A stretch of DNA of 64,000 nucleotides from Armatimonadota bacterium (GTDB lineage: Bacteria > Armatimonadota > Fimbriimonadia > Fimbriimonadales > GBS-DC): NCBI GenBank assembly GCA_037445735.1, contig JBBIJY010000001.1, positions 63,883 through 127,882 on the forward strand. The letters are read 5' to 3'. A program made the position numbers and the translations under genes. Below are positions 6,487 to 61,643 of the stretch, one piece after another; position 1 is the first letter of the stretch, and the number at the start of each line of letters is the position of its first letter. A model generated the notes under the pieces. That model was not told the origin of the DNA. It did not search any database and was given only the letters and a program-made list of their open reading frames with translations.

Positions 6487-6531
6487 GCCCTCACCCTCTG
6501 CCCCCTCTCCCACGCTGTGGGAGAGGGGGGG
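6487..6531. repeat. GC-rich palindromic element (box GCCCTCACCC plus 13-bp-stem hairpin), directly after the stop codon
   Basis: gccctcaccc tctg ccccctctcccac-gct-gtgggagaggggg. It begins 1 nt after the TAA at 6484-6486. Candidate terminator, but no clean T-tract follows. Confidence 0.75.
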
Positions 6532-6650
6532 TATTCTGGCACAAAGGTTGCTGCATTTCAAGTATCACTGAGCAGAGCCGCTCCTTCCCCAACGGCGCGT
6601 TTCGGTTCCTACGCTTATCTGGCAACACCCTTCACAGGGAGGCACAGGCA

Positions 6651-7027
6651 ATGATCGTTGTGATGCAACCGGGGGCAACCCCCGAACAGGTTCGCGATGT
6701 GGAAGAGCGACTGCGCCAGTTCGGGTTCGACATCCACCCGATCTATGGCGTGGAGCGCACCGTGATCGCGGCAGTCGGCGCACCCGAACTGGACCGCAAC
6801 GAAGCCAAAGAACAGCTCGAATCGCTGCCATGGGTGGAACAGGTCACCCTGGTGCTGAAGCCCTACAAGTTTGTCTCAAAAAAGTTTCGCGAACGCACGA
6901 TTGTGGAGGTGAACGGACTGCCGATAGGGGGCGAGCTGTTCGTGGTGATGGCAGGTCCCTGCACGGTGGAGAGCGAGGAACAACTCCTCAAAACGGCGCA
7001 GGCGGTGCATCAGGCGGGCGCCCACAT
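6651..7027 (+). pseudogene. Truncated 5' fragment of DAHP synthase (first ~125 codons) ending at the duplication junction
   Basis: Identical to 9555..9931 ([21 protein letters not shown]...[24 protein letters not shown]). After 7027 the frame reads antisense HDOD sequence (ORF 6402..7181). Confidence 0.75.
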
Positions 7028-7349
7028 GCGGGCTGGGCACCCGACCGTGGCGCAGCGCCATAAACGCCGACACGCCAAGCACCAGATTCTTGACCGTGTG
7101 GAAGCCCAGCACAATCACTGCCTGCTTCACCGTGCTGATGGTGCGCGTCAGCCCGTAATAAGCGGAGTTCGCCAGATGTAGCACCTTCACCGTGAGGGCG
7201 GGATCGGTTGTGATGAGGCGCTCTACCTGCTCAGCGGTCGCGTTCTCGCTCTCCACCAGCTCGACCAGCTGCGTCACCAGCCCTGGCAGCGCGGGCAGCT
7301 CGTGAATCGCGCGCTCAATGTCCCTGCGCACATCACTCGCCATAATCAT
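7028..7349 (-). pseudogene. Truncated 5' fragment of the HDOD gene (first ~107 codons) ending at the duplication junction
   Basis: ORF 6876..7349 begins with the same MIMASDVRRDIERAIHELPALPG...FMALRHGRVPSP as 3588..4445, then continues into antisense aroF sequence. Confidence 0.75.
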
Positions 7350-7494
7350 AGTGCCCCGATGTATGATGCAGATTCAGGGCTATTATCGGACGGTTGCGGG
7401 ATTCTCTGCAGGGCGGCGGTCATTCCCTCTTGACTGGCTCCTGCGCAAAATGTGGTATAATAGAGGTGCGGCTGAGGCCGCGAAAGGAGGTTCG

Positions 7495-9390
7495 ATGATG
7501 CAACGCAATGGCTGGTTTCGCTGGATGGGGCTGATCAGCATCGCCCTCTGTGTGAGCGCGCCGATGCTGGCGCAGAAGGGGGTACCGTCTCCCAAAGACC
7601 AGTTCGACAAGCCGCGTCCGACGCTCATCGTGGAACCGGTGAATGTCGGTCCGCGCAACCCGGCTCTCTATGCTCCCTATAACGGGGGCGATTTCTCCCC
7701 GGCAAGCGGCGATGTGGTTGTCGTCGATGTAACGGGCACACCCAGCTATGATAGCGCGGGTGCATCGTGCAATGTGCGGCTCACTATCCCCGCACCCGCT
7801 GGTAGAGATAACTTCAACGGCATCGGCTGGGATGTGTGTCTGACGGCAACCTCACCCAGCTGGCGCTGCGAAATCGCCGTGCTGATCACCAATGTGAACG
7901 GCGAAGGCTATATTCTGCGACCGGGCGCTGTTGATTGCTCCGCTGGCTCCGGTTGCTACTCCAGCGGCGCCGTGAACAAGCTGTGCGATGTGTACGGCTT
8001 CCCCGATCTGCCGCTACCCGACGGCAATCTCTACCTGGAGTTCTTCGAAACCTTTGATGACTTCGGTGGCTGCGGGCAGGACGGCAACTGGGACAGCGGC
8101 ACGCTCTCCCTGCAGTTTGGTACCACCCCGCCATTCACGGGCTGGGACGAGGCAGTCAACGGTGGTGGAGACGCTGGTGATACCCCTGAAACCGCTCAGA
8201 GCACTGGCAGCGGCGCGCTGACCGCCATTCGGGGCGATCTGGAAGCCGACGGCGTGGATATGTACGCTATCTACATTTCCGATCCCGCCCTCTTCAGCGC
8301 ATCGCTCCGCTGCGGCGCCCTGTTCGACACCCAGCTCTTCCTGTTCGACGCGAACGGCAAGGGTGTGGTGCACAACGACGACACCTTCGGGCTGATCTCT
8401 TACATCGATAACTCCACCTTCTGTATTCCAGGTCCGGGTGTCTACTACCTTGCCGTGAGCCGATATAACCGCGACCCGGTGGGCTGTGGTGGTGGGCTCA
8501 TCTGGAACAACACACCCTTCACAGAAATCCGTTGTCCCGATGGTCCCGAATCGACCTCGCGCGTGTCAGGCTGGTCGGGCTCTACAGGCGCCGCTGGCAC
8601 CTACACCATCGTCCTGCAGGGCGCCGAGGGCGCCAGTGCGGGTGATCCCGACGATTGTCCGCCACCACCGATCGATCGCTGGGACGAGACCGCTAACGGC
8701 GGCGGCGATGCGGGCGATCTGCCCTCCACCGCGCAGGCTGTTTCGCGACCCGAAGCAGAACCCTGCGCAACGGCGGTCACACGCATCACGGGCAACCGAG
8801 CAAGCACCACCGACGCCGACATGTACATCATCTGCATCACCGACCCGAACAGCTTCGTCGCCAGCACGGTGGGCGGCGCGGGCTTCGATACCCAGCTGTT
8901 CCTGTTCAAGTGCGACGGCACGGGCGTGGTGCATAACGACGACTCCAGCGCAACTGTCCAATCCCAGATCGACAACTCCACAGGCTGTATCACCGAGCCG
9001 GGCACCTACCTGCTGGCAATCACGGGCTACAACCAGGATCCGGTCGACGCCGGCGGGCAGCTCATCTGGAACAACACGCCCTTCGGTGAGGTGCGCTGTC
9101 CCGATGGTCCGGGCGCAGGAAACCCGATAGCAGGCTGGACAGGTGATGGCGACTCCGGTATCTACACCATCCAGCTGCAGGGCGCCTACTTTGTCAGCCC
9201 GGCAGGCTGCGTACCTGGCTGTCAGGGCGATGTGAACAGGGATGGCGTGGTGGATGACGCCGACCTGTTAGCTGTGCTGTTCGCCTTCGGCAACTTCTGC
9301 TCGGGTTGCCCCGAGGACCTGAACGGCGACAACATGGTCGACGACGCCGACCTGCTGATCGTGCTGTTCAACTTCGGCTGCGGCGGCTAA
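7495..9390 (+). CDS. Secreted PPC-repeat / dockerin protein (copy 2, identical to 4591..6486)
   Basis: ORF 7318..9390 has the same 690-aa translation as 4414..6486; same start reasoning shifted by +2904. Confidence 0.8.
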
Positions 9391-9435
9391 GCCCTCACCC
9401 TCTGCCCCCTCTCCCACGCTGTGGGAGAGGGGGGG
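9391..9435. repeat. GC-rich palindromic element (duplicate of 6487..6531)
   Basis: Lies within duplication copy 2; identical sequence. Confidence 0.75.
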
Positions 9436-9554
9436 TATTCTGGCACAAAGGTTGCTGCATTTCAAGTATCACTGAGCAGAGCCGCTCCTTCCCCAACGGC
9501 GCGTTTCGGTTCCTACGCTTATCTGGCAACACCCTTCACAGGGAGGCACAGGCA

Positions 9555-10574
9555 ATGATCGTTGTGATGCAACCGGGGGCAACCCCCGAACAGGTTCGCG
9601 ATGTGGAAGAGCGACTGCGCCAGTTCGGGTTCGACATCCACCCGATCTATGGCGTGGAGCGCACCGTGATCGCGGCAGTCGGCGCACCCGAACTGGACCG
9701 CAACGAAGCCAAAGAACAGCTCGAATCGCTGCCATGGGTGGAACAGGTCACCCTGGTGCTGAAGCCCTACAAGTTTGTCTCAAAAAAGTTTCGCGAACGC
9801 ACGATTGTGGAGGTGAACGGACTGCCGATAGGGGGCGAGCTGTTCGTGGTGATGGCAGGTCCCTGCACGGTGGAGAGCGAGGAACAACTCCTCAAAACGG
9901 CGCAGGCGGTGCATCAGGCGGGCGCCCACATCCTGCGCGGCGGCGCATTCAAACCCAGCACCAGCCCCTACTCCTTTCACGGCATGGGACGCACCGCGCT
10001 CGAACTGCTCCAGCAGGCACGCGAACTCACAGGCATGCCCGTCATCACCGAAGTGATGGACCCCCGCATGGTCGCCCTGGTCTGCGACTATGCCGACATC
10101 CTGCAGATTGGCACGCGCAATATGCAGAACTACGACCTGCTGCGCGAGGTGGGGCAGACGCGCAAACCCGTGATGCTCAAGCGCGGCATGTGGGCAACCT
10201 ATGAAGAGTGGCTGCAGGCTGCCGAATACATCTGGCTGGGCGGCAACGAGCAAATTATTCTGTGTGAGCGGGGCATCCGCACCTATGAAACCTATACGCG
10301 CAACACGCTCGATTTAAACGCTGTGCCCGCCATCCGCGAGCTGTCGCACCTGCCGATTATCGTCGACCCGAGCCATGGCACGGGTCGCGCCTCACTGGTG
10401 CCCGCGATGACCCGCGCCGCGCTGGCAGCAGGCGCAGACGGCGTGATCATCGAGGTGCATCCCGATCCCGCCCGCGCACTCAAGGACGGCGCCCAGTCGC
10501 TGACACCCGACGCCTTCCGCGAACTGATGCGCACGCTCCGACCGCTCGCCGAAGTGATGGAACGCCGACTCTGA
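9555..10574 (+). CDS. aroF: 3-deoxy-7-phosphoheptulonate (DAHP) synthase, type I-beta with N-terminal ferredoxin-like regulatory domain (intact copy)
   Basis: In-frame ATG at 9555 preceded by GGGAGG (9541-9546). Motifs [33 protein letters not shown] and IVDPSHGTG. The ~80-aa N-terminal extension resembles that of Thermotoga-type DAHPS. Confidence 0.9.
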
Positions 10575-13011: not shown

Positions 13012-14931
13012 ATGCGAACAGGATGGATAGTGTTGCTTGGGCTGATATTAAGCGTGCCGTTCGGAACAGCGCAGCAAAGTGAAGAAGATTTGCGCCAGCA
13101 CTGGGCATATCAGGCGATAGAGCAGTTGCAGCGACTGGGCATTTTAGAGGGTTATCCCGACGGTTCGTTCCGTCCCGATCGTCCGCTGACCCGCGCGGAG
13201 TTCGCGCAGGCGGTGTCGCGCGCCTATCGCGTGATTGATGAACGGCTGCGCAACCTGCAGCGGCGGGTGGAAACCTTCGTTACGCCCGCGCCGCCAACCC
13301 TGCCCACCGATGAGGCACGCCAGCGACGCATCCAGCGACTGGAAGAGGCAGTTCAGGAACTCAAAAAGCTCCAGGAAGTGGTGCAGACGCTGGAGCGACT
13401 GATGCCGATGGTGCGCACCGATATCGACATGCGCAGCGAGCAGGTCAGCACGCTGAAAGAGGAGCTGCAGGCGCTCCAGCAGCGACTGGAACAGCTCACC
13501 GCACGCTTCTCGTGGCAGGGCGACCTCACCTTCGGCGGCTACTCCACCCACAGCTTCGACGGACGCAGCGCGTTCACCCTCAACGGCAACCCCATAAACC
13601 CCTCTGGCAGGTTCCTGCAGAGCGACGCCTTCGTTCAGGAGCTGGCGCTGACCGTTCAGGGGCGCGCGAACGAGCGGGTGTCCGGTAAAGCCACCCTCAT
13701 CATCGGCAACTACCTCTCCTACCTGCGCAGCCCCACCCGTAACGCCGATTCGTTCCACAGTGCGCCTGCCCCGTTCCTGCTGCAGAGCAACACCGATTTC
13801 GCCCTCTGGGAAGCCTACATTCAGACCACACTGCCCCTGTTCGGGCGACAGGTCGAAGTCACGCTGGGGCGACTGCCGCTGCGCTTCACACCCTACACCC
13901 TGCAACGAATCGACCCCGATATCTATCTGGATGTCCCGCGCTATGATGATGGCGCGTTCCGGGTGGATGGCGTGCTGTTCGGCACAGGCGGCGACCGCTA
14001 TCGGCTGAACCTGTTCGCAGCCAGCGTGCATCGGCGTCGCTCCGCGGTGGCGCAGGCGTCGCAAATCTTCTTCGCCAACCACAACGCCTCCGTCTCCGCG
14101 CCCGCCGACCAGATAATCGGCTTGCGAACGGAGTACAGGGCGGTGCGGGGCGAGGAAAATTTCGTCAATATCGGGCTGACCCTCTTCGCAGCGGGCATCG
14201 GCAGGGGCAACACCTTCCGCCACCTGACTAACCCAACGCAACCCGCTGACCGCGTGGATGTGCTGGGGCTGGATGCCAGCGGGCGATGGAGCAACATCCG
14301 ATTCGGGCTGGAATACGCCCAGAGCGTCGTCTATGAGGGCGATAACCGCCGTGTCGCACGGAACAACACTGCCTTCGATGCCTATGCCGAGTACGACTTC
14401 AGCGATCGACTCGGCGGGCGACTGGGCTACCGCGAAATCATGCCCTTCTTTATCGCGCCCGGCAATTGGGGACGAATCGGCTACCTCTATAACCCATCCG
14501 ACATCAAGGGCAGCTACCTGAACCTGCGCTATAAGGCATCCGAACGCCTGAACGCATCGCTGGCTGCAGCGTTCTACACGGGCACTGCCCGACTTCGACT
14601 GCCCCAGCGCGGCTACTTTAGCAGCGATAAGCTCAACCGCTATCAGCTCGATGTCAGCTATCAGATCAACCCGCGCTGGCAACTGAAAGTGAGCTATGAG
14701 AATGTCGCCTGGCGCATCCGTAGCTTCGTGTTCGGCGGAGCGCGCGGCAGCCCCGAATGGAACTATCTCACCCTGCAACTGAGCTACAATCTGGGCGAGA
14801 ACGCCGCGCTGAACATCCTGTACCAGTTCATCGATGCGAACGGCAAGGGCGTGCCGCAACTGAGCGGCGGTCCAGGCGCAACAGGCAACCGTGCGGGCGT
14901 TGCAGCAACCACCCTGCGCGTGCAGTTCTGA
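13012..14931 (+). CDS. SLH domain - coiled coil - beta-barrel outer membrane protein (OmpM/Slp-like OM tether/porin)
   Basis: Signal peptide, then an SLH motif (WAYQAIEQLQRLGILEGYPDGSFRPDRPLTRAEFAQAV), then heptad-rich residues ~90-160, then alternating beta-strand-like sequence ending in a C-terminal ...TLRVQF (terminal Phe typical of OM barrels). Confidence 0.75.
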   Translation: MRTGWIVLLGLILSVPFGTAQQSEEDLRQHWAYQAIEQLQRLGILEGYPDGSFRPDRPLTRAEFAQAVSRAYRVIDERLRNLQRRVETFVTPAPPTLPTDEARQRRIQRLEEAVQELKKLQEVVQTLERLMPMVRTDIDMRSEQVSTLKEELQALQQRLEQLTARFSWQGDLTFGGYSTHSFDGRSAFTLNGNPINPSGRFLQSDAFVQELALTVQGRANERVSGKATLIIGNYLSYLRSPTRNADSFHSAPAPFLLQSNTDFALWEAYIQTTLPLFGRQVEVTLGRLPLRFTPYTLQRIDPDIYLDVPRYDDGAFRVDGVLFGTGGDRYRLNLFAASVHRRRSAVAQASQIFFANHNASVSAPADQIIGLRTEYRAVRGEENFVNIGLTLFAAGIGRGNTFRHLTNPTQPADRVDVLGLDASGRWSNIRFGLEYAQSVVYEGDNRRVARNNTAFDAYAEYDFSDRLGGRLGYREIMPFFIAPGNWGRIGYLYNPSDIKGSYLNLRYKASERLNASLAAAFYTGTARLRLPQRGYFSSDKLNRYQLDVSYQINPRWQLKVSYENVAWRIRSFVFGGARGSPEWNYLTLQLSYNLGENAALNILYQFIDANGKGVPQLSGGPGATGNRAGVAATTLRVQF

Positions 14932-14967
14932 CCTCCCTTCAGGGGGAGGGGGTATGGGTGAGGGGGC
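14932..14967. repeat. GC-rich palindromic element (reverse orientation), directly after the stop codon
   Basis: cctccc-ttcagg-gggagg hairpin followed by gggtatgggtgagggggc (reverse complement of the CCCTCACCC box). It fills most of the 48-nt gap before cysS. Confidence 0.65.
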
Positions 14968-14979: not shown

Positions 14980-16422
14980 ATGCCCGTACCTATGAGCGAG
15001 CTGCGCATCTACAACACACTGACGCGCCAGGAAGAGGTGTTCACACCGCGCGAGGCGGGCAGAGTCAGCATCTACGCCTGCGGGCTGACCCCCCAGGCGC
15101 CCGCCCATGTCGGACACATGCGCGGCGTGATCGTCATGGACATCGTGCAACGCTGGTTCGAACAGCTCGGCTACGAAGTGAACTTCGTGCAGAACTTCAC
15201 CGACATCGACGACAAAATCATTCGCCGCGCTCAGGAAGAAGGCATCAGCACGCAGGAGGTCGCCGAAAAGTACAGCCGCATGTATATTGAGGACGCGCAG
15301 GCACTGGGCGTGCGCCTGCCCCGATTCGTGAAGGTCACCGAGCATATGCCCGACATCATCGAGATGGTGCAGCGCCTCGTGGAGTACGGCTACGCCTATG
15401 TGGTCGATGGCGATGTCTACTTCTCCGTCGAGAAGTTCCCCGGCTATGGCAAGCTGTCGGGGCGCAGCCTCGACGAGATGAAGGCGGGCGCGCGCGTGGA
15501 AGTGGACGAACGCAAGCGCAACCCGCTCGATTTCGCATTGTGGAAAGCTGCCAAGCCCGGTGAACCCGCATGGGACAGCCCCTGGGGACCAGGGCGCCCC
15601 GGCTGGCACATCGAATGCTCCACGCTCAGCCTGAAATATCTCGGTGCAGCGTTCGATATCCACGCAGGCGGAATGGACCTTATCTTCCCTCACCACGAGA
15701 ACGAGATCGCGCAGTCGGAAGCCTATCTGCGCTGCGAGAAGCCCTTCGTGCGCTACTGGCTGCACTGGGGTCCCGTGCGCCTCAAGGAGCAGAAGATGTC
15801 GAAGTCGACGGGCGTGTTCGTGCCGATCCGCGAGCTGCGCCAGCAGTACGAGCCAGCGGTCATCCGGCTGTTTCTGCTGTCGGTCGCCTATCGCACGCCC
15901 CTGGAGTTCGCCTATGAGCGGCTGGAAGAATCGAAGTCCGCGCTGGAGCGGGTGCGCACGGCGGTTCAGCGTGCCCGCGCCCTGCTGCGCACGCTGCCAC
16001 AACCCCCTGAACCCAACGAGAGCGTCGCCCAGCCCTACAAAGCGCAGTTTACCGACGCGATGAACAGCGATTTCAACACGGCGCAGGCGCTGGCGGTCGC
16101 CTTCGAACTGGTGCGTGAACTGAATCAGCACCTCAGCGATTCCGAAAGCGCGGGCGTCGCAGCGCAGGCACCCGCGCTCGCCGCCCTGCTGAACACCCTG
16201 CAATGGATGATGGAGACAGTGCTGGGCATCCCGCTCACGCGAGCGGAATCCATCGAAAGCGAGCTGCTCGATTCACTGATGGCGCGCGTGATCGAGTGGC
16301 GCCAGCAGCTGCGCGAGCGCAAACTGTTCGATCTGGCAGACCGCATTAGAGATGACCTCAAAGCGCTGGGCATCCTGCTGGAGGACACCCCCCAGGGCAC
16401 GCTCTGGCGCCGCAAAGAGTAA
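14980..16422 (+). CDS. cysS: Cysteine--tRNA ligase
   Basis: ORF 14980..16422. HIGH-type motif (PAHVGHMRG), KMSKS present (KMSKSTG), and the characteristic CGLTP / WHIECS segments. Confidence 0.95.
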   Translation: MPVPMSELRIYNTLTRQEEVFTPREAGRVSIYACGLTPQAPAHVGHMRGVIVMDIVQRWFEQLGYEVNFVQNFTDIDDKIIRRAQEEGISTQEVAEKYSRMYIEDAQALGVRLPRFVKVTEHMPDIIEMVQRLVEYGYAYVVDGDVYFSVEKFPGYGKLSGRSLDEMKAGARVEVDERKRNPLDFALWKAAKPGEPAWDSPWGPGRPGWHIECSTLSLKYLGAAFDIHAGGMDLIFPHHENEIAQSEAYLRCEKPFVRYWLHWGPVRLKEQKMSKSTGVFVPIRELRQQYEPAVIRLFLLSVAYRTPLEFAYERLEESKSALERVRTAVQRARALLRTLPQPPEPNESVAQPYKAQFTDAMNSDFNTAQALAVAFELVRELNQHLSDSESAGVAAQAPALAALLNTLQWMMETVLGIPLTRAESIESELLDSLMARVIEWRQQLRERKLFDLADRIRDDLKALGILLEDTPQGTLWRRKE

Positions 16423-16423: not shown

Positions 16424-16466
16424 CCCCCTCTCCCACAGCGTGGGAGAGGGGGCAGGGGGTGAGGGA
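16424..16466. repeat. GC-rich palindromic element filling the gap between convergent cysS and the MFS gene
   Basis: ccccctctcccac-agc-gtgggagaggggg, which is the exact reverse complement of the 6501-6529 hairpin, followed by cagggggtgaggg (box in reverse orientation). Confidence 0.8.
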
Positions 16467-17813
<1,347 letters not shown>

Positions 17814-40022: not shown

Positions 40023-40082
40023 AGAAAGGGAAGGATTACAAATCCCCCGCGCTCCAGAATGGGGGAAGATACGGGTGAGGGG
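40011..40082. repeat. Degenerate GC-rich palindromic element spanning the pyrC stop and the whole convergent intergenic gap
   Basis: ccctctccc-tga-agaaagggaagg, then tccccc...ggggga, then acgggtgagggg (box in reverse orientation). It ends 1 nt before the stop of 40084..40905. Confidence 0.55.
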
Positions 40083-40083
40083 T

Positions 40084-40905: not shown

Positions 40906-40995
40906 CACACGAACCTCCTGCACCCACCCCGATTCGGGAAGCCCTGCCCCACTCCTGCTGGATAGCCGATCCGGGAGCTGACCACTCACGATGGG

Positions 40996-41016
40996 TATAA
41001 TCGCTGGCGAGGGAGG
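40996..41016 (+). promoter_or_regulatory. Putative -10 (TATAAT 40996-41001) and RBS (GGGAGG 41011-41016) of aspA
   Basis: gggtataatcgctggcgagggaggcagcaATG. The -35 element was not convincingly identified. Confidence 0.35.
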
Positions 41017-41021
41017 CAGCA

Positions 41022-44826: not shown

Positions 44827-44869
44827 CGCCTATTATCGGCAACCGTTCGATGCCTGATTAGCCCGAAAG

Positions 44870-44899
44870 TTGCCTGGTCTCCACTCGCGCAGGTATAAT
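44870..44899 (+). promoter_or_regulatory. Putative sigma-70 promoter of cruF (TTGCCT-N18-TATAAT)
   Basis: ttgcct at 44870-44875 and tataat at 44894-44899. ATG at 44920 follows AGGTGA. Confidence 0.45.
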
Positions 44900-44919
44900 C
44901 GCTGCACTTCAGGTGAACG

Positions 44920-46432: not shown

Positions 46433-47535
46433 CGAATCGTCCCCCGCAGGTTCCAGATGAGTGAGCGTATCAACACGCCCAGCGCCAGCGCGACCGAGAG
46501 CGGATAGAACAGTCCATACCAGAAGGGCAGCCCGACGCAACGCCCTGATACACCGAACAAAAGCACCGCCAACCCGATACAGCCGATTCGCCACAACACC
46601 GGACCCCACACCAGTGGCAGCCAGTAAAGCATCACCATCGCCAGACCAATCGCTATGGCGGGCCATACACCCCGACAGAGCGCGACCGCGTTCTTGGAAT
46701 AGCCATCCACTGCCTCTGCCAATCGGCGATACATGTGGGTGGATAGAAAACGCGAACCATGCAGAATCTGAATCTGGCTGGCGCCGCTTCGTTGCTGACG
46801 GCAGCGTTTGACCAGCTGGGCAATGCTTACATCGTCCAGCATGCAGCCCGCCACCGCTTGATGCGGCTGATCCTGCGCGTAGGCGTCCGCACGATAGGCA
46901 AGACACTGCCCGTTCGCGAAGCCGAACGCAGGGTTCGGATGCGACTCGGCAAGCGGTAGCGGCAGAAGGGTGAACAGCGATGCCATCACCACCTGATGCA
47001 GGAGCGCATCGCCCAGCCCTGCGGGCACGATGCGCGGAATGACCGTGATCAGCACCGCTTCAGGCGAGCGCGCGATTGCCTGACCGAGCCACAGCAGGAA
47101 ATCGCGCTCCGGCTCCACATCGGCATCCAGAAACACCAGCGCCTGTGCGCCAAACCGAAGCGCCGCGTTGCCCAGCTGATAGCACGCCCACGCCTTGCCA
47201 GTCCAGCCGTTGGGCTTCGGCTGGGTTGGAACCAGCTGGAAGCCATACCGTTCCGCGTTCCGCTGGAGCCACTGCGTGCTGCCATCGCTGGATTCGTCGT
47301 CGTAGATCAGAACGGCGCACGGCGCCCACGATTGCGACTGCAAAGCCCATAGCAGGTGGGGTAGATTGTGTCGCTCGTTACGCACAGGGATCAGCACCAC
47401 CAGGCGGGGCAGGCTCAGCGCGTCTGCTAAAGCGTCCCGCTGTACACGCCGTCGCCGATGAAATAGATTAATCACCAGCACGACACCCTGCGTCAGGAGC
47501 ATCAGCCCAATCGCCACCTGCACAACCGTTGCCAT
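46405..47535 (-). CDS. Family 2 glycosyltransferase with C-terminal membrane segments, candidate carotenoid glycosyltransferase (CruC/CrtQ-like)
   Basis: VLIPVRNE...YDDESSDGS...FLDADV GT2 motifs. Position between the acyltransferase and crtB. Confidence 0.75.
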   Translation of the reverse strand: MATVVQVAIGLMLLTQGVVLVINLFHRRRRVQRDALADALSLPRLVVLIPVRNERHNLPHLLWALQSQSWAPCAVLIYDDESSDGSTQWLQRNAERYGFQLVPTQPKPNGWTGKAWACYQLGNAALRFGAQALVFLDADVEPERDFLLWLGQAIARSPEAVLITVIPRIVPAGLGDALLHQVVMASLFTLLPLPLAESHPNPAFGFANGQCLAYRADAYAQDQPHQAVAGCMLDDVSIAQLVKRCRQQRSGASQIQILHGSRFLSTHMYRRLAEAVDGYSKNAVALCRGVWPAIAIGLAMVMLYWLPLVWGPVLWRIGCIGLAVLLFGVSGRCVGLPFWYGLFYPLSVALALGVLIRSLIWNLRGTIRWKGRFYPG

Positions 47536-47574
47536 CGCCCTTGCAGCGCATTCGGAATCTTACCTGTTCACAGC

Positions 47575-48585
47575 GTGCAATCGGGTATCCTTCAGGGCAG
47601 GCGCGTTTACAGGGAGGGCTGGATAGTTGTGGCGCTGGACGATGCGTTAGGGCAGTGGCGCGCATGGGAAGCGGAGCTGGTGAATCGGGCAACCAGCGTC
47701 TCAGAGGAGTATCTGGAACCCTATCCTGTCGATCCTGCGGAGCTGCGATCAGCATATGCGCGTTGCGAGCAGATTACACGCACGCACAGTCGAACCTTCT
47801 ATTTAGCGTCGGCGTTTATGCCGCGTCCGAAGCGGCGGGCGATCCGCGCCCTGTATGCCTTCTGCCGCGTGAGCGACGATATGGTGGACCGAAGCGAGGG
47901 CAATTCGGCAGCCAGGCTGTCAGCATGGCGGCGTGCGGTGCTGGATGAGAAGGTCAGCGACCCCGTGCTGACCGCCTGGCGCGACACGCTCGCCCGCTAT
48001 CGCATCCCCATCGGCTATATGTTCCAGCTGCTGGACACGCTGGAGACCGACCTCACAACGGCTCGCTACGCCACCTTCAAACAGCTGGCACACTACTGCT
48101 ACGGGGTGGCGTCCACCGTCGGGCTGATGTCGATGCACATTATCGGTTATACCGATCGGCGAGCCGTCGAGTATGCGGTGCGTCTGGGCGTCGCGCTACA
48201 GCTGACCAACATTCTGCGTGATGTGGGCGAAGACTGGCGTCGAGGTCGGCTCTATCTGCCGCTGAGCGAGCTGGATGCCTTCGAGTTGAGTGAGCGCGAC
48301 ATCGCAGCGGGACGCCTCTCATCGCAGTGGTGCGACTTCATGCGATTCCAGATTGCACGGGCAAGACGGCTGTATGCCGCTGCTCTGCCGGGCATCGCAT
48401 GGCTCCACCGCGATGGGCGGTTCGCCGTTACCGCCGCGGCAGAACTGTATCGCGCTATTCTGGACGATATCGAAAAACACGGCTACGATGTATTTCGCCG
48501 ACGCGCCCATGTCAGCGGTTGGCGCAAACTCATCGCCCTCCCTGCCATCGCATGGCGCACCTGCACCCTGCACTCCGTCCAGTAG
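47575..48585 (+). CDS. crtB: Phytoene synthase
   Basis: Motifs [34 protein letters not shown] and [18 protein letters not shown]. The ORF-track start is a GTG at 47575; an alternative GTG at 47629 follows AGGGAGGG (47611-47618). Confidence 0.85.
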
Positions 48586-48587
48586 CC

Positions 48588-50084
48588 ATGAGTCAGCCGC
48601 GCACAGTGGTGATTGGAGCCGGGTTTGGTGGATTGGCGATTGCCGCCCGCCTCTGCGCACGCGGGCATCAGGTGGAGCTGTTCGAAAAGCTCGACAAACC
48701 TGGCGGGCGCGCCTACACCTTCATACAGGACGGCTTCACCTTCGACGGCGGTCCAACCGTCATCACCGCACCGTTCCTGTTCGACGAGCTGTTCGCAATA
48801 GCAGGACGCAGACGCAGCGACTATGTGGAGTTCATTCCCATCAATCCCTTCTACCGAATCTTTGACCATCAGGGCAACTACTTTGAGTATAACGGCGACA
48901 CCGACTATGTACTGACGCAGATTGAGCGGTGGAATCCCGCCGATAAGGAAGGCTATCGGCAACTGCTGGAACGAACGCGCACCCTCTTCCAGAAGGGCTT
49001 CATCGAGCTGGCAGATAAACCCTTTCTGTCGTTCACAGACATGGTGCGCGTCGTGCCCGACCTGATCCGCCTGCAGTCGTACCGTTCTGTTTACAGCTAT
49101 GTGGCACAATTTATCCAGCATGAGTTTCTGCGCCGCTGTTTCACTTTCCATCCGCTTTTGATAGGGGGCAACCCCTTCACCGCTTCTTCGATCTATGCGC
49201 TGATCCACTATCTGGAGCGTGAATGGGGTGTCTGGTACGCTCGTGGCGGCACAGGCGCGCTGGTGCAGGCGCTGGTGCGCCTGATTGAGGAACAGGGCGG
49301 ACATATCCACCTCAACACAGAAGTGGCGGAGATTGTAATTGAGGGTCGGCGAGCGAAGGGCGTGCGCCTCAACGATGGTCGATTCGTGCCCGGCGATTAT
49401 GTGGTCTGTAATGCCGATGTCCCCTATGCCTATATGAACCTGATTGCGCCCCAGCATCGCAGCTGGCGCAACTCCGATTTCCGCTATAAACGGCTGACCC
49501 GCTACAGCATGTCGCTGGTGGTCATCTACTTTGGCACCAATCGTCTTTACCGCGATACACCGCTGGCGCATCACAACATCATGCTGAGCGCGCATTATCG
49601 CGAGTTGATCGAGCAGATTTTTGGCGCGCGCTCCCTGCCGCAGGAGTTTTCGCTCTATCTGCACATGCCGACACTGACCGATCCAGCGCTGGCGCCTGAG
49701 GGGTACGAGGCGTTCTATGTGCTCGCACCTGTGCCCCATCTGGGCGCACCTATCGATTGGGAGCGTGAGGCGCGACCCTACCGCGATGCGATTATGCAGT
49801 TCCTGGAACAGCACTATCTGCCTGACCTGCGTCGGCATATCGTGACGGAACGAATGATCGACCCGCGCTACTTTCGCGATCGGCTCAACACCTATCTGGG
49901 CACTGGGTTCTCGATTCAGCCGCTGCTTCTGCAGTCGGCATGGTTTCGCCCGCACAACCGCTCCGAAGATGTGGACAATCTCTACTTTGTGGGCGCGGGC
50001 ACGCATCCAGGCGCAGGCTTGCCAGGCGTGCTCTGCTCCGCCAAAGCGGTCGATTCGCTCATTTCTGGAGGTTCACTCAAATGA
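48588..50084 (+). CDS. crtI: Phytoene desaturase (CrtI, C40 type)
   Basis: ATG 2 nt after the crtB stop. [19 protein letters not shown]...[23 protein letters not shown]...[21 protein letters not shown]...[14 protein letters not shown] closely parallels my recollection of Pantoea CrtI. Confidence 0.9.
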
Positions 50085-50539
50085 TTTATGTGCTTCATCG
50101 GGAGCAGATTATCCCGGCACCGCTTGAGCGTGTGTGGGACTACTTCGCAACGCCGCTGAATCTGAACGCGATTACACCGCCCGATCTGCACTTTGAGATT
50201 GTGCGCGGCGGCGAACAGCGCATGTACGCCGGGCAGGTGATTGAATATCGGGTGTCGATAGTGCCCGGCGTGCGGGTGCGCTGGCTTACCCAGATAACCC
50301 ATGTGGAGCCGTTGCGCATGTTTATCGATGAACAGCGCATCGGACCCTACCGACTCTGGATCCATGAGCATCGGTTCGTGCCAGAGGGCGACTCGGTGCG
50401 AATGATTGACCATGTGACCTATGCGCTTCCGTTCGGCGTGATAGGGCGGCTGGCGCATGCACTGTTTGTGCGGCGTCGCCTGGACCACATTTTTGATTTT
50501 CGGCGGCGGAAGGTGGAGGAACTGTTCGGGGGTCAGTAA
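50081..50539 (+). CDS. SRPBCC (START/cyclase-dehydrase-like) family protein
   Basis: ATG overlaps the crtI stop (ATGA at 50081-50084), with GGAGG at 50067-50071. [28 protein letters not shown]... is typical of small SRPBCC proteins. Confidence 0.65.
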
Positions 50540-50555
50540 GGTAGACTTGCATGGG

Positions 50556-52772
<2,217 letters not shown>

Positions 52773-52776: not shown

Positions 52777-53190
52777 ATGGAGTATCATAAAAGCGGGATG
52801 AAACCGAACGAGTTGCTGGAACGGTTGCAAGCGCCGCCGATACCGCTGCGAATCGATGAGGACGGCGCGCTGCGTGTCGGTGAAACGCGGATCACGCTGG
52901 AAACCGTGCTGATTGGCTTCCAGAATGGCAGCAGCCCAGAAGAGCTGGTGCTGCAGTACCCCGTGCTGAAACTCGAAGATGTCTACACCCTGCTGGCATA
53001 TTACCTGCATAATCGCGCCCTGTTTGACCAGTTTCTGGAATCCATTCGGCACGAGGCGGAAGCGAAGTTCGCCCATTATGAACGGCTCTACCCGACCGCC
53101 GATCTACGCAAACGCCTGCTGGTCAGCGGCGGGGCTGGGCATTATGCTCGCGCTGGAGCGCTTCAAAAATCTGCTCCACCTGCGCGTTGA
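52777..53190 (+). CDS. DUF433 domain-containing protein (antitoxin-like), no partner gene
   Basis: LRIDEDGALRVGETRITLETVLIGFQNGSSPEELVLQYPVLKLEDVYTLLAYYLHN matches the DUF433 pattern. Starts 4 nt after the copA stop; its 3' end overlaps convergent pheT by 68 nt. Confidence 0.6.
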   Translation: MEYHKSGMKPNELLERLQAPPIPLRIDEDGALRVGETRITLETVLIGFQNGSSPEELVLQYPVLKLEDVYTLLAYYLHNRALFDQFLESIRHEAEAKFAHYERLYPTADLRKRLLVSGGAGHYARAGALQKSAPPAR

Positions 53191-55249
53191 CCTCTTCATC
53201 GGTCAGCGTGCGTTCAGGATGGCGGAACACCAGCGCGAAGGCGAGGCTGTGGCAGCCTTCGGGCACCGGCGCGCCCGTGTAGCGGTCAAAAAGTTGCACC
53301 GATTCGAGCCATTCGCCGCCCGCCTGCCAGATGGTGGCAAACAGGCGCGCGGCGGGCACGCTCTGCGCCACAATCACAGCAATATCACGCAGAACGGGCG
53401 GTTGCGTCGGCAGCGGGCGATAGCGCACCTCGTGCGTGGACAACTCGCGCAACGCCTCCAGATCGAACTCGGCAAGGTAAACCCGTCGGCGGAACCCGTA
53501 CTGGCGCTGGAGTTCAGGATGCAGCTCGCCCAGCCGCCCCAGCCACCTGCCACTCGCTTCCACATCCGCCACGCGCCCTGGATGGAAGCGCCGATCCGCC
53601 TGAACTCCCTTGCCCCCCTCACCCGTGGAAGACTCAGAAACCTCCTTGCCCTGCTGGGGCGCGGGATCAAGATATTCCGCCTGAATGCCCAGCATGGTCA
53701 ATAGATGCTCCACCACGCCCTTGAGCGCGTAGAAGTCAGCCTCGCGCGGCTTGCCCGTCCAGTGCGGCGCGTGCAGGGCGCCCGTCATCACGATTCCCAG
53801 CGCGAGCCGCTCCTGATAGCCATCAGAACCCCTGCTGAACACACGCCCGATCTCGAACAGATGCAGGTCGGCAATCCCGTGTCGGCGGTTATGGTCCGCG
53901 GCAAACAGCAGCCCCGATAGAATCGAAGTGCGCAGATAGCGCAGCTCATCGCTCATCGGGTTGAGCAGTTCGACAGGCGGCAGAAGCTGCAGGGGGTTCG
54001 CTGGCTCCAGCGTGTGGCTGACAATCTCCTGCAGACCTGCGCCGAGCAGAATGGTGCGCACGCGCTCGGCGAAGGCGCCTTCCGGGCTATCTTTGCCCTG
54101 CGTGGTCAGCCCTGCAGGCGGCGATTCGGGGATGCGCTCATAGCCCAGAATGCGCCCCAGCTCCTCAATTACATCCTCCTCGCGCTTGAGGTCTTCATAG
54201 CGATAGAACGGAACCTGCAGGGTGAAGACGCCCGCTTCGCGCCCGACAGGTCGCAGGTTCAGTCGGGTCAGAACCGCCTGCGCCTCAGCGGGGTCTATCG
54301 CGAAGCCCAGCAGCTTTTCAGCGCGCGTGATCCGCACAGTCAGCTCGCGCGACGGGTACGGCTTCGGATACACATCCAGCACACCCGCCACCGCCACGAC
54401 ACCCGTCCACTGCTCAATCAGCTCGCACACGCGCACCTGCGCCGCAACCACCAGATTCGGGTCCACGAAACGCTCGAAGCGATAGGACGATTCGGTGCGC
54501 AGCCCCAGCTCGCGGGCGGTGCGCCGAATCGAAAGCGGATTAAAATGCGCCGATTCCATCAGGATATGGCGCGTTTGTGGGGTGACTTCCGTTTCTGCAC
54601 CACCCATGATGCCTGCGACGGCGACGGGGCGCACAGCATCGCAGATCATCAGCATCGGGGGCTTGATGGCGTGTTCGCGCCCATCCAGCGTCTGGATGCG
54701 CTCGCCCTCGCGCGCCTGCCGCACAACGATGCGCCTTTCCTGAAGCGTATCCAGGTCGAACGCATGCAGCGGCTGACCCAGCTCCAGCAGCACATAGTTG
54801 GTGGCGTCGACAATATTGTTGATGGGGCGCATGCCCGCCGCATGGAGACGCTGCTGAACCCTGACGGGCGAAGGCGCGATGCGCACATCCCTGATCACCC
54901 GCGCCGCATAGCGCGGACACAGGTCAGGGTCCAGAATCTCCACCGCTGCATACTGGGGCACCTCGCCAGGGTCGGGCGCAGGCGGGTTCAGAATCAGCGC
55001 GTTAAGCCGTTCAAACAGGGGTGTCGGCTGGCACAAGTCGCCCAGAATCGCGACCACCTCGCGAGCGATGCCAAAAATGCTCAAACAATCGCCCCGATTG
55101 GGCGTGATATAGAGCACCAGCACCTCACCATCGGGCGTGGTGTCGATCTCTTCCACTTCCAGCCCCGCCATCGTCAGCCGTTCGGCTAACGCCGACACGC
55201 TCAGGTCGAACTGCACGAACTCCTTCAGCCACTCAATCGGGACGCGCAT
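53123..55249 (-). CDS. pheT: Phenylalanine--tRNA ligase beta subunit (short form lacking the N-terminal OB-fold tRNA-binding domain)
   Basis: MRVPIEWLKEFV...AERLTMAGLEVEE then directly ITPNRGDCLSIFGIAREV. B3/4 (NYVLLELGQPLHAFD), B5, and the C-terminal FDX-ACB region (RDIAVIV...LFDRYTG). 708 aa. Confidence 0.9.
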   Translation of the reverse strand: MRVPIEWLKEFVQFDLSVSALAERLTMAGLEVEEIDTTPDGEVLVLYITPNRGDCLSIFGIAREVVAILGDLCQPTPLFERLNALILNPPAPDPGEVPQYAAVEILDPDLCPRYAARVIRDVRIAPSPVRVQQRLHAAGMRPINNIVDATNYVLLELGQPLHAFDLDTLQERRIVVRQAREGERIQTLDGREHAIKPPMLMICDAVRPVAVAGIMGGAETEVTPQTRHILMESAHFNPLSIRRTARELGLRTESSYRFERFVDPNLVVAAQVRVCELIEQWTGVVAVAGVLDVYPKPYPSRELTVRITRAEKLLGFAIDPAEAQAVLTRLNLRPVGREAGVFTLQVPFYRYEDLKREEDVIEELGRILGYERIPESPPAGLTTQGKDSPEGAFAERVRTILLGAGLQEIVSHTLEPANPLQLLPPVELLNPMSDELRYLRTSILSGLLFAADHNRRHGIADLHLFEIGRVFSRGSDGYQERLALGIVMTGALHAPHWTGKPREADFYALKGVVEHLLTMLGIQAEYLDPAPQQGKEVSESSTGEGGKGVQADRRFHPGRVADVEASGRWLGRLGELHPELQRQYGFRRRVYLAEFDLEALRELSTHEVRYRPLPTQPPVLRDIAVIVAQSVPAARLFATIWQAGGEWLESVQLFDRYTGAPVPEGCHSLAFALVFRHPERTLTDEEVNAQVEQIFEALQREHNAQPRR

Positions 55250-56641: not shown

Positions 56642-56696
56642 CGTGATAGCCTCCTCAGGCGTGGAGCTCGGGCGCAGGATGCGCCCGCTCCTGCGT

Positions 56697-58794: not shown

Positions 58795-58835
58795 CAGATA
58801 TTATCGGTATCGGTGCAACCGATTTTGAGGACTTT

Positions 58836-61643
58836 TTATGTAAGCTGCTGGAGCCGCGTGGCAATTCGCTGATGGCGTTCCATCAGCTCCTGCTCCTGGG
58901 CGCGGGTCTCCTGCACCACTTCGGGGCGGGCGCGCTCCAGAAATTGGGGGTTGCGCAGGCGTGCCTGCACGCGCCGCAGCTCCTCCTCCACCCTGTTGAG
59001 TTCGCGCTGCAGGCGTTCACGCTCGCGCCCGATGTCGATGACGCCTTCGACGGGCAGGTAGACCTCCGCGCCGTCGGTGGGGTTCATCAGCGCGCGCTCC
59101 GTCGGCGTGCCCCAGCGAATCTCGCGGCACCAGGCGAGGTACTCCATCAGCGGCTGATGGCGCTGCAAGCGCATGCGACCGAGATTGTCCGTCGGATTCA
59201 ACCACACCAGCGGGATTTCGACGCCGGGCGTGATATTGACCTCCGCGCGCAGGTTGCGAATGGCGCGAATGGTTTCGAACACCTGTGCGATTTCGGCTTC
59301 CGCCTCAGGGTCGATAAGCGCGGGGTTCGCCTGCGGGAAGGGCGCACGGATCAGCGCAGGACAATCGGGCGTCGCGCCAATCGCCTGCCACAGCTCCTCG
59401 CTGATGTGCGGCATGTAGGGATGCAGCAGGCGCAGAATCTGGTCAAACAGGTAGACGAGCATCGCCTGCGTCCGGGCGCGGCGGGCGGTGTCCTGCAGGC
59501 GCGGCTTGCACGCCTCGATATACCAGTCGCACACCTCGCTCCAGATGAACTCATAGAGGGCGTTCGCGCCGTCATCGAAGCAGTAGTTCGTGAGCGCGGT
59601 CTGAACCGCGTCGATGGTGCGCTGCAGGCGGCTCAGCACCCAGCGATCCAGCACATCAGCAGGCTGTGCCCCCATCTGGCGCAGGGTCGCTAAATCGGCA
59701 TCGCTCAGGTTCAGCAGCACGAACCGCGTGGCGTTCCACACCTTGTTCGCGAAGTTGCGGGCGTTCACCACGCGCTCCTCATAGAAGCGGATCGACTGCT
59801 GCATGCCCGCCTGCTGAAGCAGCGACCAGCGCAGGGCGTCCGTGCCATACTTGTCGATCATCTCCAGCGGGTCGATGCCCGTGCCGAGCGATTTGGACAT
59901 CCGCCTGCCCTCTTTGTTCAGCACGGTCGCGTGGATGTACACCTCGTGGAAGGGCACATCGCCCACGAAATAAAGCCCCGTCATAATCATGCGGGCAACC
60001 CACAGGTAAAGAATCTCCTGCGCCGTAATCAGCACATTGGTGGGATAAAAAAGACGCAGCTCGTCCGAGGCGCGGGGCCAGCCCAACACGGTCTGGGGCC
60101 AGATGGCGGAGGAGAACCATGTGTCCAGCACATCGGGGTCGCGCACGAGGCGCGTGCTGCCACAACGCGGGCATCGGTCAGGCGCGCTCTTTTGCACAAT
60201 GGGGCTTTCCCGCCGCTTGAGGCGGTATCGCACCCCCTCACCCGTACCCTCTCCCCCTGATGGGAGAGAGGGACTTTGAACCCCCGCTCCCCTCTGGGGT
60301 GAGGGGTCAGTCAACAGCTCAAAGTTTTCGGGATGGCAATCGATGCAGTACCATGCGGGAATCTGGTGTCCCCACCAGAGCTGGCGGGAGATGCACCAGT
60401 CGCGAATGTTCTCCATCCAGTTCAGGTACATTTCGGTGTAGCGTTCGGGAATGAAGCGCACCTTGCCCTGCTTCACGACCTCGATGGCGGGTCTGGCGAT
60501 TGGCTCCATGCGGCAGAACCACTGCTCGCTCAGGAGCGGCTCGATGACCGTGTGGCAGCGTTCACAGCGCGAGAGCGGCACCGTGTGGTCTTCCACTTTC
60601 ACCAGATAGCCCGCCTGCTGAAGGTCCTCCACGATCAGCCGGCGCACCTCGTAGCGGTCTTTGCCATGATACTTTTGCAGGTAGGGGTTGGCGTGAGCGT
60701 TGAGTTCCTCGCGCAGGCGCTCGGTGTTGATGGTGGCGTCCTCGTTAATCACGATGGGGCGAGGCAGGTTGTGCCGCTGCCCCATTTCGAAGTCGTTCGG
60801 GTCGTGGGCGGGCGTCACCTTGACCGCGCCTGTGCCGAAGGCGGGATCGGGGTAGGGATCGGCAATCAGCGGGATGAGCCGGTTCACCAGTGGCAGGCGC
60901 AGGGTGCGTCCGATCAGCCCCTGATAGCGTCCATCGGCAGGGTTGACCGCCACCGCCACATCGCCCAGCATCGTTTCGGGGCGTGTGGTCGCAACCACCA
61001 CGCCGCCCTCGCCCTCCGCGAACGGATAGAGGATGTGATAGAGCTTGCCCGCCTCTTCCGTGCGCTCCAGCTCAATGTCGGAGAGGGCGGTTCGGCACCG
61101 GGGACACCAGTTGATGACGCGCTCGCCAATATAGAGATGCCCATCCTGCCACCAGCGCACAAACACCTCCAGCACGGCGTCGGCATATTCGGGGTCGAGC
61201 GTGAAGCGGGTATAGCGCCAGTCGTAGGAGCAGCCGAGCCGACGGAACTGCATCAGGATCGTGTTGCCATACTGCTCGCGCCACTGCCACACGCGCTCCA
61301 GGAACTTCTCACGCCCCAGTTGCTGGCGGGTCAGTCCCTCCTTGAGCAGTTCACGCTCCACCACATTCTGGGTGGCGATGCCCGCATGGTCGGTGCCCGG
61401 CACGCACAGCACATTGTAGCCCTGCATGCGCTTCCAGCGCAGCAGCACATCGTGGATGGTGTTGTTCAGCGCGTGCCCCATGTGGAGTGAACCCGTGATG
61501 TTGGGCGGCGGGATAGTGATGCAGTAGCGCGGGCGACCGTCATCGGCGATGACCGCCTCAAAATCGCCCCGCTCCAGCCACCACTGATACCGCCGCTGCT
61601 CCACCTGATGCGGGTCATAAGTTTTCGGCAACTCCTGCGCCAT
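58836..61643 (-). CDS. valS: Valine--tRNA ligase
   Basis: HIGH (SLHMGHAL), KMSKS (RMSKSLGTG), DVLDTWFSS, and a C-terminal coiled coil. Start placed at MAQELPKTYDP (61643) by analogy to the typical ValRS N-terminus; the ORF-track start is 61670. Confidence 0.95.
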   Translation of the reverse strand: MAQELPKTYDPHQVEQRRYQWWLERGDFEAVIADDGRPRYCITIPPPNITGSLHMGHALNNTIHDVLLRWKRMQGYNVLCVPGTDHAGIATQNVVERELLKEGLTRQQLGREKFLERVWQWREQYGNTILMQFRRLGCSYDWRYTRFTLDPEYADAVLEVFVRWWQDGHLYIGERVINWCPRCRTALSDIELERTEEAGKLYHILYPFAEGEGGVVVATTRPETMLGDVAVAVNPADGRYQGLIGRTLRLPLVNRLIPLIADPYPDPAFGTGAVKVTPAHDPNDFEMGQRHNLPRPIVINEDATINTERLREELNAHANPYLQKYHGKDRYEVRRLIVEDLQQAGYLVKVEDHTVPLSRCERCHTVIEPLLSEQWFCRMEPIARPAIEVVKQGKVRFIPERYTEMYLNWMENIRDWCISRQLWWGHQIPAWYCIDCHPENFELLTDPSPQRGAGVQSPSLPSGGEGTGEGVRYRLKRRESPIVQKSAPDRCPRCGSTRLVRDPDVLDTWFSSAIWPQTVLGWPRASDELRLFYPTNVLITAQEILYLWVARMIMTGLYFVGDVPFHEVYIHATVLNKEGRRMSKSLGTGIDPLEMIDKYGTDALRWSLLQQAGMQQSIRFYEERVVNARNFANKVWNATRFVLLNLSDADLATLRQMGAQPADVLDRWVLSRLQRTIDAVQTALTNYCFDDGANALYEFIWSEVCDWYIEACKPRLQDTARRARTQAMLVYLFDQILRLLHPYMPHISEELWQAIGATPDCPALIRAPFPQANPALIDPEAEAEIAQVFETIRAIRNLRAEVNITPGVEIPLVWLNPTDNLGRMRLQRHQPLMEYLAWCREIRWGTPTERALMNPTDGAEVYLPVEGVIDIGRERERLQRELNRVEEELRRVQARLRNPQFLERARPEVVQETRAQEQELMERHQRIATRLQQLT
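60231..60308. repeat. GC-rich palindromic element(s) inserted in frame in valS
   Basis: caccccctcacccgta ccctctccc-cctgat-gggagagagg ... cccctc-tggggt-gagggg. Translated on the minus strand as DPSPQRGAGVQSPSLPSGGEGTGEGV. Confidence 0.75.

Follow-up and report, generated by a model that had tools for sequence, protein, structure and literature searches.

How can one family of short palindromes reside both directly behind stop codons and, in frame, within essential genes of the same compact genome? This question is raised by a 64-kb stretch of an Armatimonadota genome (contig JBBIJY010000001.1, positions 63,883 to 127,882; hereafter the window), which has 62.6% G+C, is about 89% coding and has a median intergenic gap of 60 nt. 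A first-pass annotation of this DNA described a dispersed set of GC-rich boxes and hairpins that it could place in no named class. The class does have a name: the loci are copies of the repeat known from Escherichia coli as BoxC, PIT or TM_ECO, as seen from its published description (PMC4666352) and from direct BLAST comparison. Their placement is probably that of selfish, structure-prone repeats of the BoxC/TM type, among which selection leaves the copies that follow stop codons and those that lie in frame in tolerant loops.

The TM_ECO pattern was published as 5'-CCCTCNCCC N3-6 GGGNGAGGG N3 GGGNGAGGG (Holder et al. 2015, PMC4666352), and the same repeats had earlier been named BoxC (1990s) and PIT, for potential intrastrand triplex (2000). 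That study reported the pattern in 262 proteobacterial genomes and lists E. coli copies in its Table 1, for example CCCTCTCCCTGTGGGAGAGGGCCGGGGTGAGGGC, including inverted pairs of two subtypes. The HPG1/HPG2 switch between G-quadruplex, hairpin and duplex is likewise located at E. coli BoxC loci (Kaplan et al. 2016, PMC5100583), and both papers place all E. coli copies in intergenic DNA. As in BoxC, the window elements carry the blocks CCCTC(T/G)CCC, GGGAGAGGG and GGGTGAGGG on one strand and in the same order; the window holds six exact and seven near-exact units, and their blocks are identical to those of Table 1. A BLAST search with 51 nt of the window (36225-36275) found matches with 84% identity over 94% of the query (48 nt) in 5,252 of the 5,426 complete E. 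coli genomes, with a median of 7 sites per genome and no annotated feature under the eight best matches listed. One E. coli site that was examined is intergenic, between cstA and ybdD, a locus that also appears in the table of PMC5100583. The strict published spacing (loop 3-6, spacer 3) finds 0 matches in the window, and loops of 3-9 and 3-7 nt are needed, because of stems longer by 2-4 bp and a second spacer that often measures 5-6 nt. Under the published pattern the first loop counts as 7 nt, since stems with 2 additional bp leave a real loop of 3 nt; for the second loop, three units have 3 nt and four have 5-6 nt. This departure in spacing is a difference at the level of a subfamily.

The unit itself is simple. 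On its G-rich strand it consists of five parts in order: a C-arm (CCCTCTCCCCC or CCCCCTCTCCCAC), a 3-nt loop, a complementary G-arm (GGGGGAGAGGG), a spacer of 3-6 nt (TAC/TAT, or CAGG/CAGA/TCAGG) and a G-box (GGGTGAGGGGGC). There are two subtypes, one built as box, CCTG and 13-bp hairpin, the other as 11-bp hairpin, TAC and box. The full element is an inverted pair with one unit of each subtype flanking a short A/T-rich centre (AGTTTCAG, TTCAAAGT, ACACCTG and similar), and such pairs are found in the window at 36183-36270 and 60228-60318 and at three loci (L006, L052 and L058) of a related metagenome-assembled genome (MAG), JBBIML. The boxes of paired units form 12-nt terminal inverted repeats (GCCCCCTCACCC ... 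GGGTGAGGGGGC). The box is not a module of its own but corresponds to the third block of the published triplex/G-quadruplex motif, and doubles as the terminal inverted repeat of the pair. The evidence on structure consists of computed hairpin energies and counts of G-quadruplex (G4) motifs. In single-strand folding compared with shuffles, single units reach -16 kcal/mol and composites -47 to -51 kcal/mol, with z scores of -4 to -10 for clean copies. Hairpins are perfect at 6501, 16424 and 51859 and decayed at 40011 and in the copper ATPase gene of a related contig, L001 (MAG GCA_037444405.1). The description of a box joined to a hairpin at every locus consequently holds in part: the copy at 14932 has a weak 7-bp hairpin (z -1.8) and that at 40011-40082 is decayed (z -0.9), and 53609 has a box without a hairpin, as had been noted from the start.

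Is such a family more than the by-product of a G+C-rich sequence? The 9-mer CCCTCACCC occurs 14 times in the window, against a mean of 0.61 and a maximum of 3 in dinucleotide-preserving shuffles, and CCCTCTCCC occurs 15 times, against a mean of 0.49 and a maximum of 3, an excess of roughly 25-fold. This comparison with shuffled sequence, of a kind that the first-pass annotation had proposed, bears out its central claim of a real, dispersed palindromic family, since the 9-mers are far above the roughly 0.5 expected and group at loci instead of being scattered. Both orientations are present among the copies, as described. The intervals given, announced as at least ten loci, are nine; eight of these nine are independent, because the copy at 9391 arose through tandem duplication. 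Isolated 9-mers at 21122 and 62405 are probably due to chance. There are 7 complete units (C-arm, loop, G-arm, loop and G-box) in the 64 kb, a density of 10.9 per 100 kb, and 6 in 38 kb of related Armatimonadota contigs; the same pattern gives 0 in 732 kb of unrelated metagenome contigs. Chance low-complexity G/C runs or assembly artefacts might be suspected from the base composition and from a source that looks like a MAG, but the order and spacing of the blocks are conserved, the frames of the in-frame copies stay open, and identical 29-nt hairpins stand at unlinked loci: 6501-6529 is the exact reverse complement of 16424-16452, in 29 of 29 bases, as had been stated. Furthermore, L001, an independent assembly, shares the ATPase copy. 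The excess over shuffles and the counts of complete units refute this explanation, which we regard as practically negligible.

Four copies reside inside genes, in frame and free of stops, each insert being flanked on either side by Pfam domains. Here the earlier claim of in-frame copies within essential genes is upheld by the domain matches and by comparison with orthologues; the genes encode valyl-tRNA synthetase (ValRS), the beta subunit of phenylalanyl-tRNA synthetase (PheRS-beta), an E2 acyltransferase of the pyruvate dehydrogenase (PDH) type and a copper P-type ATPase. In the E2 gene (35320-36603, minus strand), a composite at 36182-36318 (dG -47 kcal/mol, z -5.2) corresponds to aa 96-141, within the linker that joins the lipoyl domain to the E3-binding domain; it consists of an inverted pair (36183-36221 and 36231-36270), a small hairpin GTGGGCGGGACGCCCAC (36274-36290) and a solo TAC plus G-box (36304-36318). 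The ATPase gene (50457-52772, plus strand) has a composite at 51846-51965 (dG -51.5 kcal/mol, z -10) that corresponds to aa 464-503 in the HAD/nucleotide-binding region (N-domain) and is made of a box, ATA, two perfect 11-13-bp hairpins and a right end that has decayed. Within pheT (53123-55249, minus strand), a box-only insert of 36 nt, or 12 codons, VSESSTGEGGKG, lies on the minus strand at 53606-53641 and accounts for aa 537-548, within the tRNA_synthFbeta (CLM) domain match at aa 373-597. Finally, a paired element at 60228-60318 occupies aa 451-481 of valS (58836-61670, minus strand), in a variable loop.

These inserts would be translated into flexible segments. The peptides they encode are rich in Pro, Ser, Gly and Glu (for example PSPVPSPPVGER and SLPSGGEGTGEGV; types PSPxPSP and PLSPxGGEGTGEG), and that of ValRS reads ...DPSPQRGAGVQSPSLPSGGEGTGEGV, with a junction peptide such as SLPSGGEGTGEGVR. 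Among the frames of the G-rich strand, one gives GGEGTGEG or GEGMGEG, the second an Arg-rich peptide, and the third contains TGA; eight reading frames elsewhere use the GGEGTGEG/GEGMGEG frame, five of them in Pfam-confirmed genes. In an AlphaFold model of ValRS (built from 14 sequences and poor, with a mean pLDDT of 62), the insert at aa 455-479 is coil with pLDDT below 50, as are many other segments. A phmmer search with the 46-aa E2 insert returned 2 weak matches only, and no protein in the search had a word triplet in common with the 40-aa ATPase insert. The E2 linker also contains a second and different hairpin family, GTGGGC-N3-5-GCCCAC, at 36274-36295; the GCTAC that comes after it reads as a GTAG tag on the opposite strand and resembles the tag of repetitive extragenic palindromic (REP) elements. 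A similar GTGGGC-type hairpin forms a 23-nt insertion in L001 (14889-14911, opposite window position 56667), beside an existing hairpin upstream of rplT/infC.

Comparison with close relatives links the in-frame copies to presence and absence in otherwise near-identical genes. The ValRS and E2 relatives include 'bacterium HR15' and Fimbriimonadales MAGs, which identifies the organism as a Fimbriimonadales-like member of the Armatimonadota, and L001 is collinear with window positions 43005-64000 at 94-97% nucleotide identity. Relative to L001, valS of the window is 84 nt longer, a difference that equals the paired element (orthologue 96% identical in protein, P0001/L001), and pheT is 36 nt longer (orthologue 94% identical, without the insert). 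The ATPase gene differs by two indels of +45 and +3 nt (48 nt, 16 codons); the window has two perfect hairpins there and L001 has one, with a decayed G-arm. All length differences between the window and L001 at element sites are multiples of three. Among the aligned ValRS proteins, the insert is missing from the nearest homologue (907 aa, 96% identical) and from most relatives that are 83-87% identical, so that gain in the lineage of the window is the simplest reading. A more distant relative, L280 (ValRS 79% identical in protein), has a different, well-formed paired element at the same codon position (4330-4470), and in three further relatives the inserts at this site look unrelated. Among the E2 relatives, the linkers are ordinary Ala/Pro stretches of similar length, one of which, in L281 (E2 78% identical in protein), contains a single hairpin unit at 3320-3350. 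Together, the ValRS copy of L280 and the E2 copy of L281 suggest that the same permissive sites have been used repeatedly.

Could the in-frame copies instead be modules selected at the protein level, that is, Pro/Gly-rich linkers that converged on similar codons? The encoded peptides are flexible and hydrophilic, and all relatives have a natural linker rich in Ala and Pro at the E2 site. However, non-coding DNA holds the same palindromes with the same spacers, and they are found in either orientation; the inserts are absent from close orthologues, and arms that pair in the DNA encode peptides that are unrelated to each other. The non-coding copies largely refute convergence of this kind, and we consider it very improbable.

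A different proposal is that the elements are retained for a function of non-B DNA, such as a triplex or a G4/hairpin switch, acting in regulation or as a hot spot of recombination and instability that yields useful variation. The G-arm, spacer and G-box together make a canonical G3N3G3N3G3N3G3 motif, and the elements supply 8 of the 9 canonical G4 motifs of the window, where 2.6 would be expected. The published oligonucleotide adopts a stable triplex fold in vitro, and TM loci show more rearrangement between E. coli strains (PMC4666352); the element sites are also sites of indels between the window and L001, and the stem bases are kept across phyla. On the other hand, no triplex signal was found in double-stranded DNA or in vivo (PMC4666352), the position of the elements relative to promoters is inconsistent, and the ATPase arm of L001 and the copy at 40011 have decayed without apparent consequence. 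The range from perfect to decayed copies with intact host frames argues against structure being required at those sites, and selfish palindromes are equally expected to be unstable. Retention for such a function seems to us quite unlikely.

Outside genes, the copies begin where coding sequence ends. The distance of 0-1 nt from stop codons described in the first-pass annotation was recovered: it is 0 nt at 6487, 0 nt at 14932, and 1 nt and 0 nt on the two sides of the copy at 16424. The unit at 6487-6531 (minus strand; dG -16.5 kcal/mol, z -4.0) reads on the plus strand as box GCCCTCACCC, TCTG and a 13-bp hairpin CCCCCTCTCCCAC/GTGGGAGAGGGGG; it abuts the TAA of a gene for a 690-aa secreted protein (4414-6486) and opens a 389-nt gap. 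The copy at 9391-9435 (minus strand) is identical to it, as had been reported, yet it is no independent copy and belongs to a perfect tandem duplication of 2,904 bp (4124-7027 = 7028-9931). This duplication doubles the element together with the gene for the secreted protein (weak PPC-domain match, dockerin-like C-terminus), leaves a truncated copy of an HDOD gene at 6876-7349, and could be a very recent event or an assembly artefact. On the plus strand, the weak-hairpin unit at 14932-14967 has the order CCTCCC TTCA GGGGGAGG, TAT and G-box GGGTGAGGGGGC and carries a G4 motif; it directly follows the TGA of an SLH-porin gene (13012-14931) and takes up most of the 48-nt gap before cysS (14980-16422). 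The unit at 16424-16466 (plus strand) consists of a 13-bp hairpin, CAGG and G-box GGGTGAGGGA and occupies the 44-nt convergent gap between the stops of cysS (16420-16422) and of an MFS gene (16467-16469). The decayed paired element at 40011-40082 (plus strand), ending TAC GGGTGAGGGG, overlaps its host gene: its first arm encodes the last residues (PSP) of an amidohydrolase/dihydroorotase-like gene (38676-40022) and its loop provides the TGA stop. The filling of convergent gaps, proposed for intergenic copies in general, hence applies at 16424 only, the gap at 14932 being a tandem one. Just 3' of the decayed element, about 1 kb (40023-41021) has no Pfam-supported gene on either strand, and a terminator-like site is seen at 40715-40734. 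A CysRS scan of metagenomes found closest relatives at 75-77% identity, with no close strains for the sites at 6487, 14932 and 16424; the E2 neighbourhood of the nearest relative, L079, is syntenic no further than the PDH operon, which leaves no comparison for the 40011 site.

Strong hairpins directly after stop codons invite the idea that the intergenic copies are functional RNA, either intrinsic terminators or 3' hairpins that shield mRNA from exonucleases, and that the in-frame copies are accidents. REP elements do stabilise mRNA (Di Nocera et al. 2013, PMC3733652), and the terminator scan flags one element, the minus strand at 16424, with a 14-bp stem and a TTTACTCTTT tail. But the same scan shows no T-run at 6487, 9391, 14932 and 40011, and with a T-rich tail in only one of five intergenic copies, the candidacy as terminators put forward in the first-pass annotation finds little support. 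In addition, the box takes no consistent orientation with respect to the upstream gene, half of the copies are intragenic, where termination would be lethal, and earlier E. coli work, as cited in PMC4666352, credits PIT elements with neither terminator nor promoter activity. What a genuine terminator looks like in this DNA is seen at 28591-28634, after a gene for 1038 aa (25460-28576): a perfect palindrome of 15-17 bp, CATCCCCCCTCCTGAAG/CTTCAGGAGGGGGGATG (28591-28624), is followed by TTTATTTTTTT, which makes this textbook intrinsic terminator an internal control. We therefore judge a general role as functional RNA unlikely.

How far does the family extend beyond this genome? In a 596-Gb species collection, the 21-mer GGGAGAGGGTAYGGGTGAGGG has at least 77 loci, against about 0.5-2.5 expected by chance (our own arithmetic, dependent on G+C). 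Hosts among the matches listed belong to Armatimonadota, Omnitrophota, Alpha-, Beta-, Gamma- and Deltaproteobacteria, Chloroflexota, Planctomycetota, Verrucomicrobiota, Elusimicrobia, NC10, Acidobacteria, Bacteroidia, Melainabacteria, Zixibacteria and other groups, and nearly all of these loci have a complementary C-arm upstream. This wide range of phyla extends the report on 262 proteobacterial genomes. A low-G+C Omnitrophota MAG, JAMWCZ, has more than 20 loci among the matches listed and carries arrays in which 3-5 complete units repeat head to tail about every 40-53 nt (L005 3190-3305 and L028 2500-2870). A looser pattern of G-arm, spacer and G-box was found in at least 120 viral or proviral contigs of IMG/VR; in 68 of the 98 matches read from the 80 viral contigs listed (L160-L239) the C-arm stands upstream, and the spacers are diverse (CCG, TTA, TTG, CTG and others). 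Transfer by phages from one lineage to another is possible. The C-arm variant CCCTCGCCC, which faces GGGAGAGGG with a fixed G.A mismatch and is dominant in E. coli, recurs among the matches listed at 20 genome loci of several phyla and in 13 viral matches. Recurrence of the same mismatch is easier to reconcile with common ancestry or horizontal transfer than with hairpins that evolved independently. Intragenic copies are also seen elsewhere: Pfam-confirmed cases among the loci listed affect an SMC hinge and LpxK (both from MAG JBBIML), the pyruvate kinase of a different Armatimonadota MAG, the E2 linker of Mesorhizobium and a radical-SAM gene of Hydrogenophaga.

Taken together, these observations are probably best explained by BoxC/TM-type repeats behaving as selfish, non-autonomous DNA. 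A hairpin formed in single-stranded DNA, or alternatively a triplex or G-quadruplex, would underlie gain, loss and local duplication, which would make the units mobile and not simply prone to deletion. In a compact genome, selection would then retain harmless copies only, as neutral passengers. The survivors would be those placed right after stops and those that are a multiple of three in length, stop-free and situated in surface loops or interdomain linkers, where they would give rise to the flexible peptides described above.

Several points weigh against this explanation. The genes of the window include no transposase and no REP-associated tyrosine transposase (RAYT) by Pfam; the filled and empty sites compared at ValRS, PheT and ATPase reveal no target-site duplication, and the outer flanks of the box show A/T enrichment only in a flank logo. 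The comparisons leave some doubt whether a given difference is an insertion or a precise deletion, and the L280 element at the same ValRS codon position points either to a hot spot or to long retention with repeated loss at a site that turns over. For translation of the inserts, the evidence is their open frames. Above all, 27 stem bases are nearly identical across many phyla and phage contigs, the CCCTCGCCC variant included; such conservation exceeds the constraint expected of purely neutral junk and is the main observation that selfish repeats leave unexplained. There is also a bolder idea: BoxC/TM units may be a single, sequence-conserved mobile element across phyla and phage contigs, which has no dedicated transposase, is moved by a universal host process acting on its hairpin, triplex or G4, and is a recurrent source of loop and linker peptides in essential proteins such as aminoacyl-tRNA synthetases, SMC, pyruvate kinase and E2. 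We hold this to be possible, though doubtful.

The findings matter for several reasons. BoxC has been known since the 1990s, with E. coli copies described as strictly intergenic; the lineage of the window carries it at about 20-fold the density of K-12 and within essential proteins. The differences in presence and absence between near-identical genomes are recent, and both the question of the mobiliser and the seeding of new protein segments become testable in this lineage. There is also a practical side, as the inserts inflate or split gene calls and give rise to spurious "hypothetical proteins" in GC-rich MAGs.

Other features of the region deserve mention. A 5.7-kb carotenoid cluster (44843-50535; Caroten_synth, family-2 glycosyltransferase, phytoene synthase and amine-oxidase-type desaturase) is missing from L001, where the flanking ABC-transporter and ATPase genes adjoin. 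At its contig edge (1-637), L001 encodes a SufB/SufD-type protein of 1,287 residues with two sets of intein-splicing and LAGLIDADG matches. The stretch of lowest G+C in the window (57%) holds two PIN-domain genes (30895-31308 and 31653-32045), which are likely toxins of toxin-antitoxin systems.

Where, then, do the elements stand among known repeats and structured sequences? A CRISPR-like array was considered and rejected, an Rfam scan of the whole window at the gathering threshold returned no family, and a tRNA search of the window returned none. With MITEs, transposable elements of the miniature inverted-repeat type, they share paired units with terminal inverted repeats, a length below 150 bp, the lack of coding capacity of their own and polymorphism of presence and absence; unlike MITEs, they have no detected target-site duplication and no known parent insertion sequence with matching ends. 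Rickettsia palindromic elements (RPEs) are AT-rich and known only from Rickettsia. Like the window copies, RPEs are described as in-frame palindromes in protein-coding genes, housekeeping genes included, that add surface segments (Ogata et al. 2000, as cited in PMC3184786). The latter paper puts their length at about 105-146 bp. The two share no common block structure, and it is composition, length and block structure, rather than sequence comparison, that set them apart. In-frame or intragenic palindromic repeats are known in other families, namely RPEs (PMC3184786), some REPs and repeats that supply stop codons (PMC3733652).

In behaviour the elements also parallel REPs and the bacterial interspersed mosaic elements (BIMEs). 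REPs are short GC-rich palindromes that occur singly, as dimers or in mosaics and mostly downstream of genes, with ends that abut or supply stop codons, some intragenic copies and an abundance that varies between close strains (PMC3733652). The resemblance to REP/BIME and to RPEs noted in the first-pass annotation is thus sound as to behaviour, given the stop-abutting intergenic copies and the in-frame ones. Unlike REPs, the window elements have no GTAG or CGTC tag beside the hairpin, the flanks being TAC/GTA followed by the G-box; they possess a third G-rich block, and they keep their sequence from phylum to phylum, in contrast to the lineage-specific families of REPs.

With BoxC, finally, likeness extends from the blocks to the way of life: units are single or paired in inverted orientation as two subtypes, dispersed, multi-copy and in both orientations, with no linked transposase and at indel-prone loci. 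The differences are of degree and setting. Stems are 11-13 bp in the window versus 9-10 bp in E. coli, and spacers are TAC/TAT or 5-6 nt long versus TTA/CCG. Density is about 11 per 100 kb versus about 0.5 in E. coli K-12 (23 copies; our own arithmetic from the published count). The host is an armatimonadote instead of E. coli, and about half of the copies lie within genes, whereas those of E. coli are all intergenic. The class of element is already known; what is new is its occurrence in this phylum with longer stems and at high density, its frequent in-frame residence in essential genes, and its range over many phyla.

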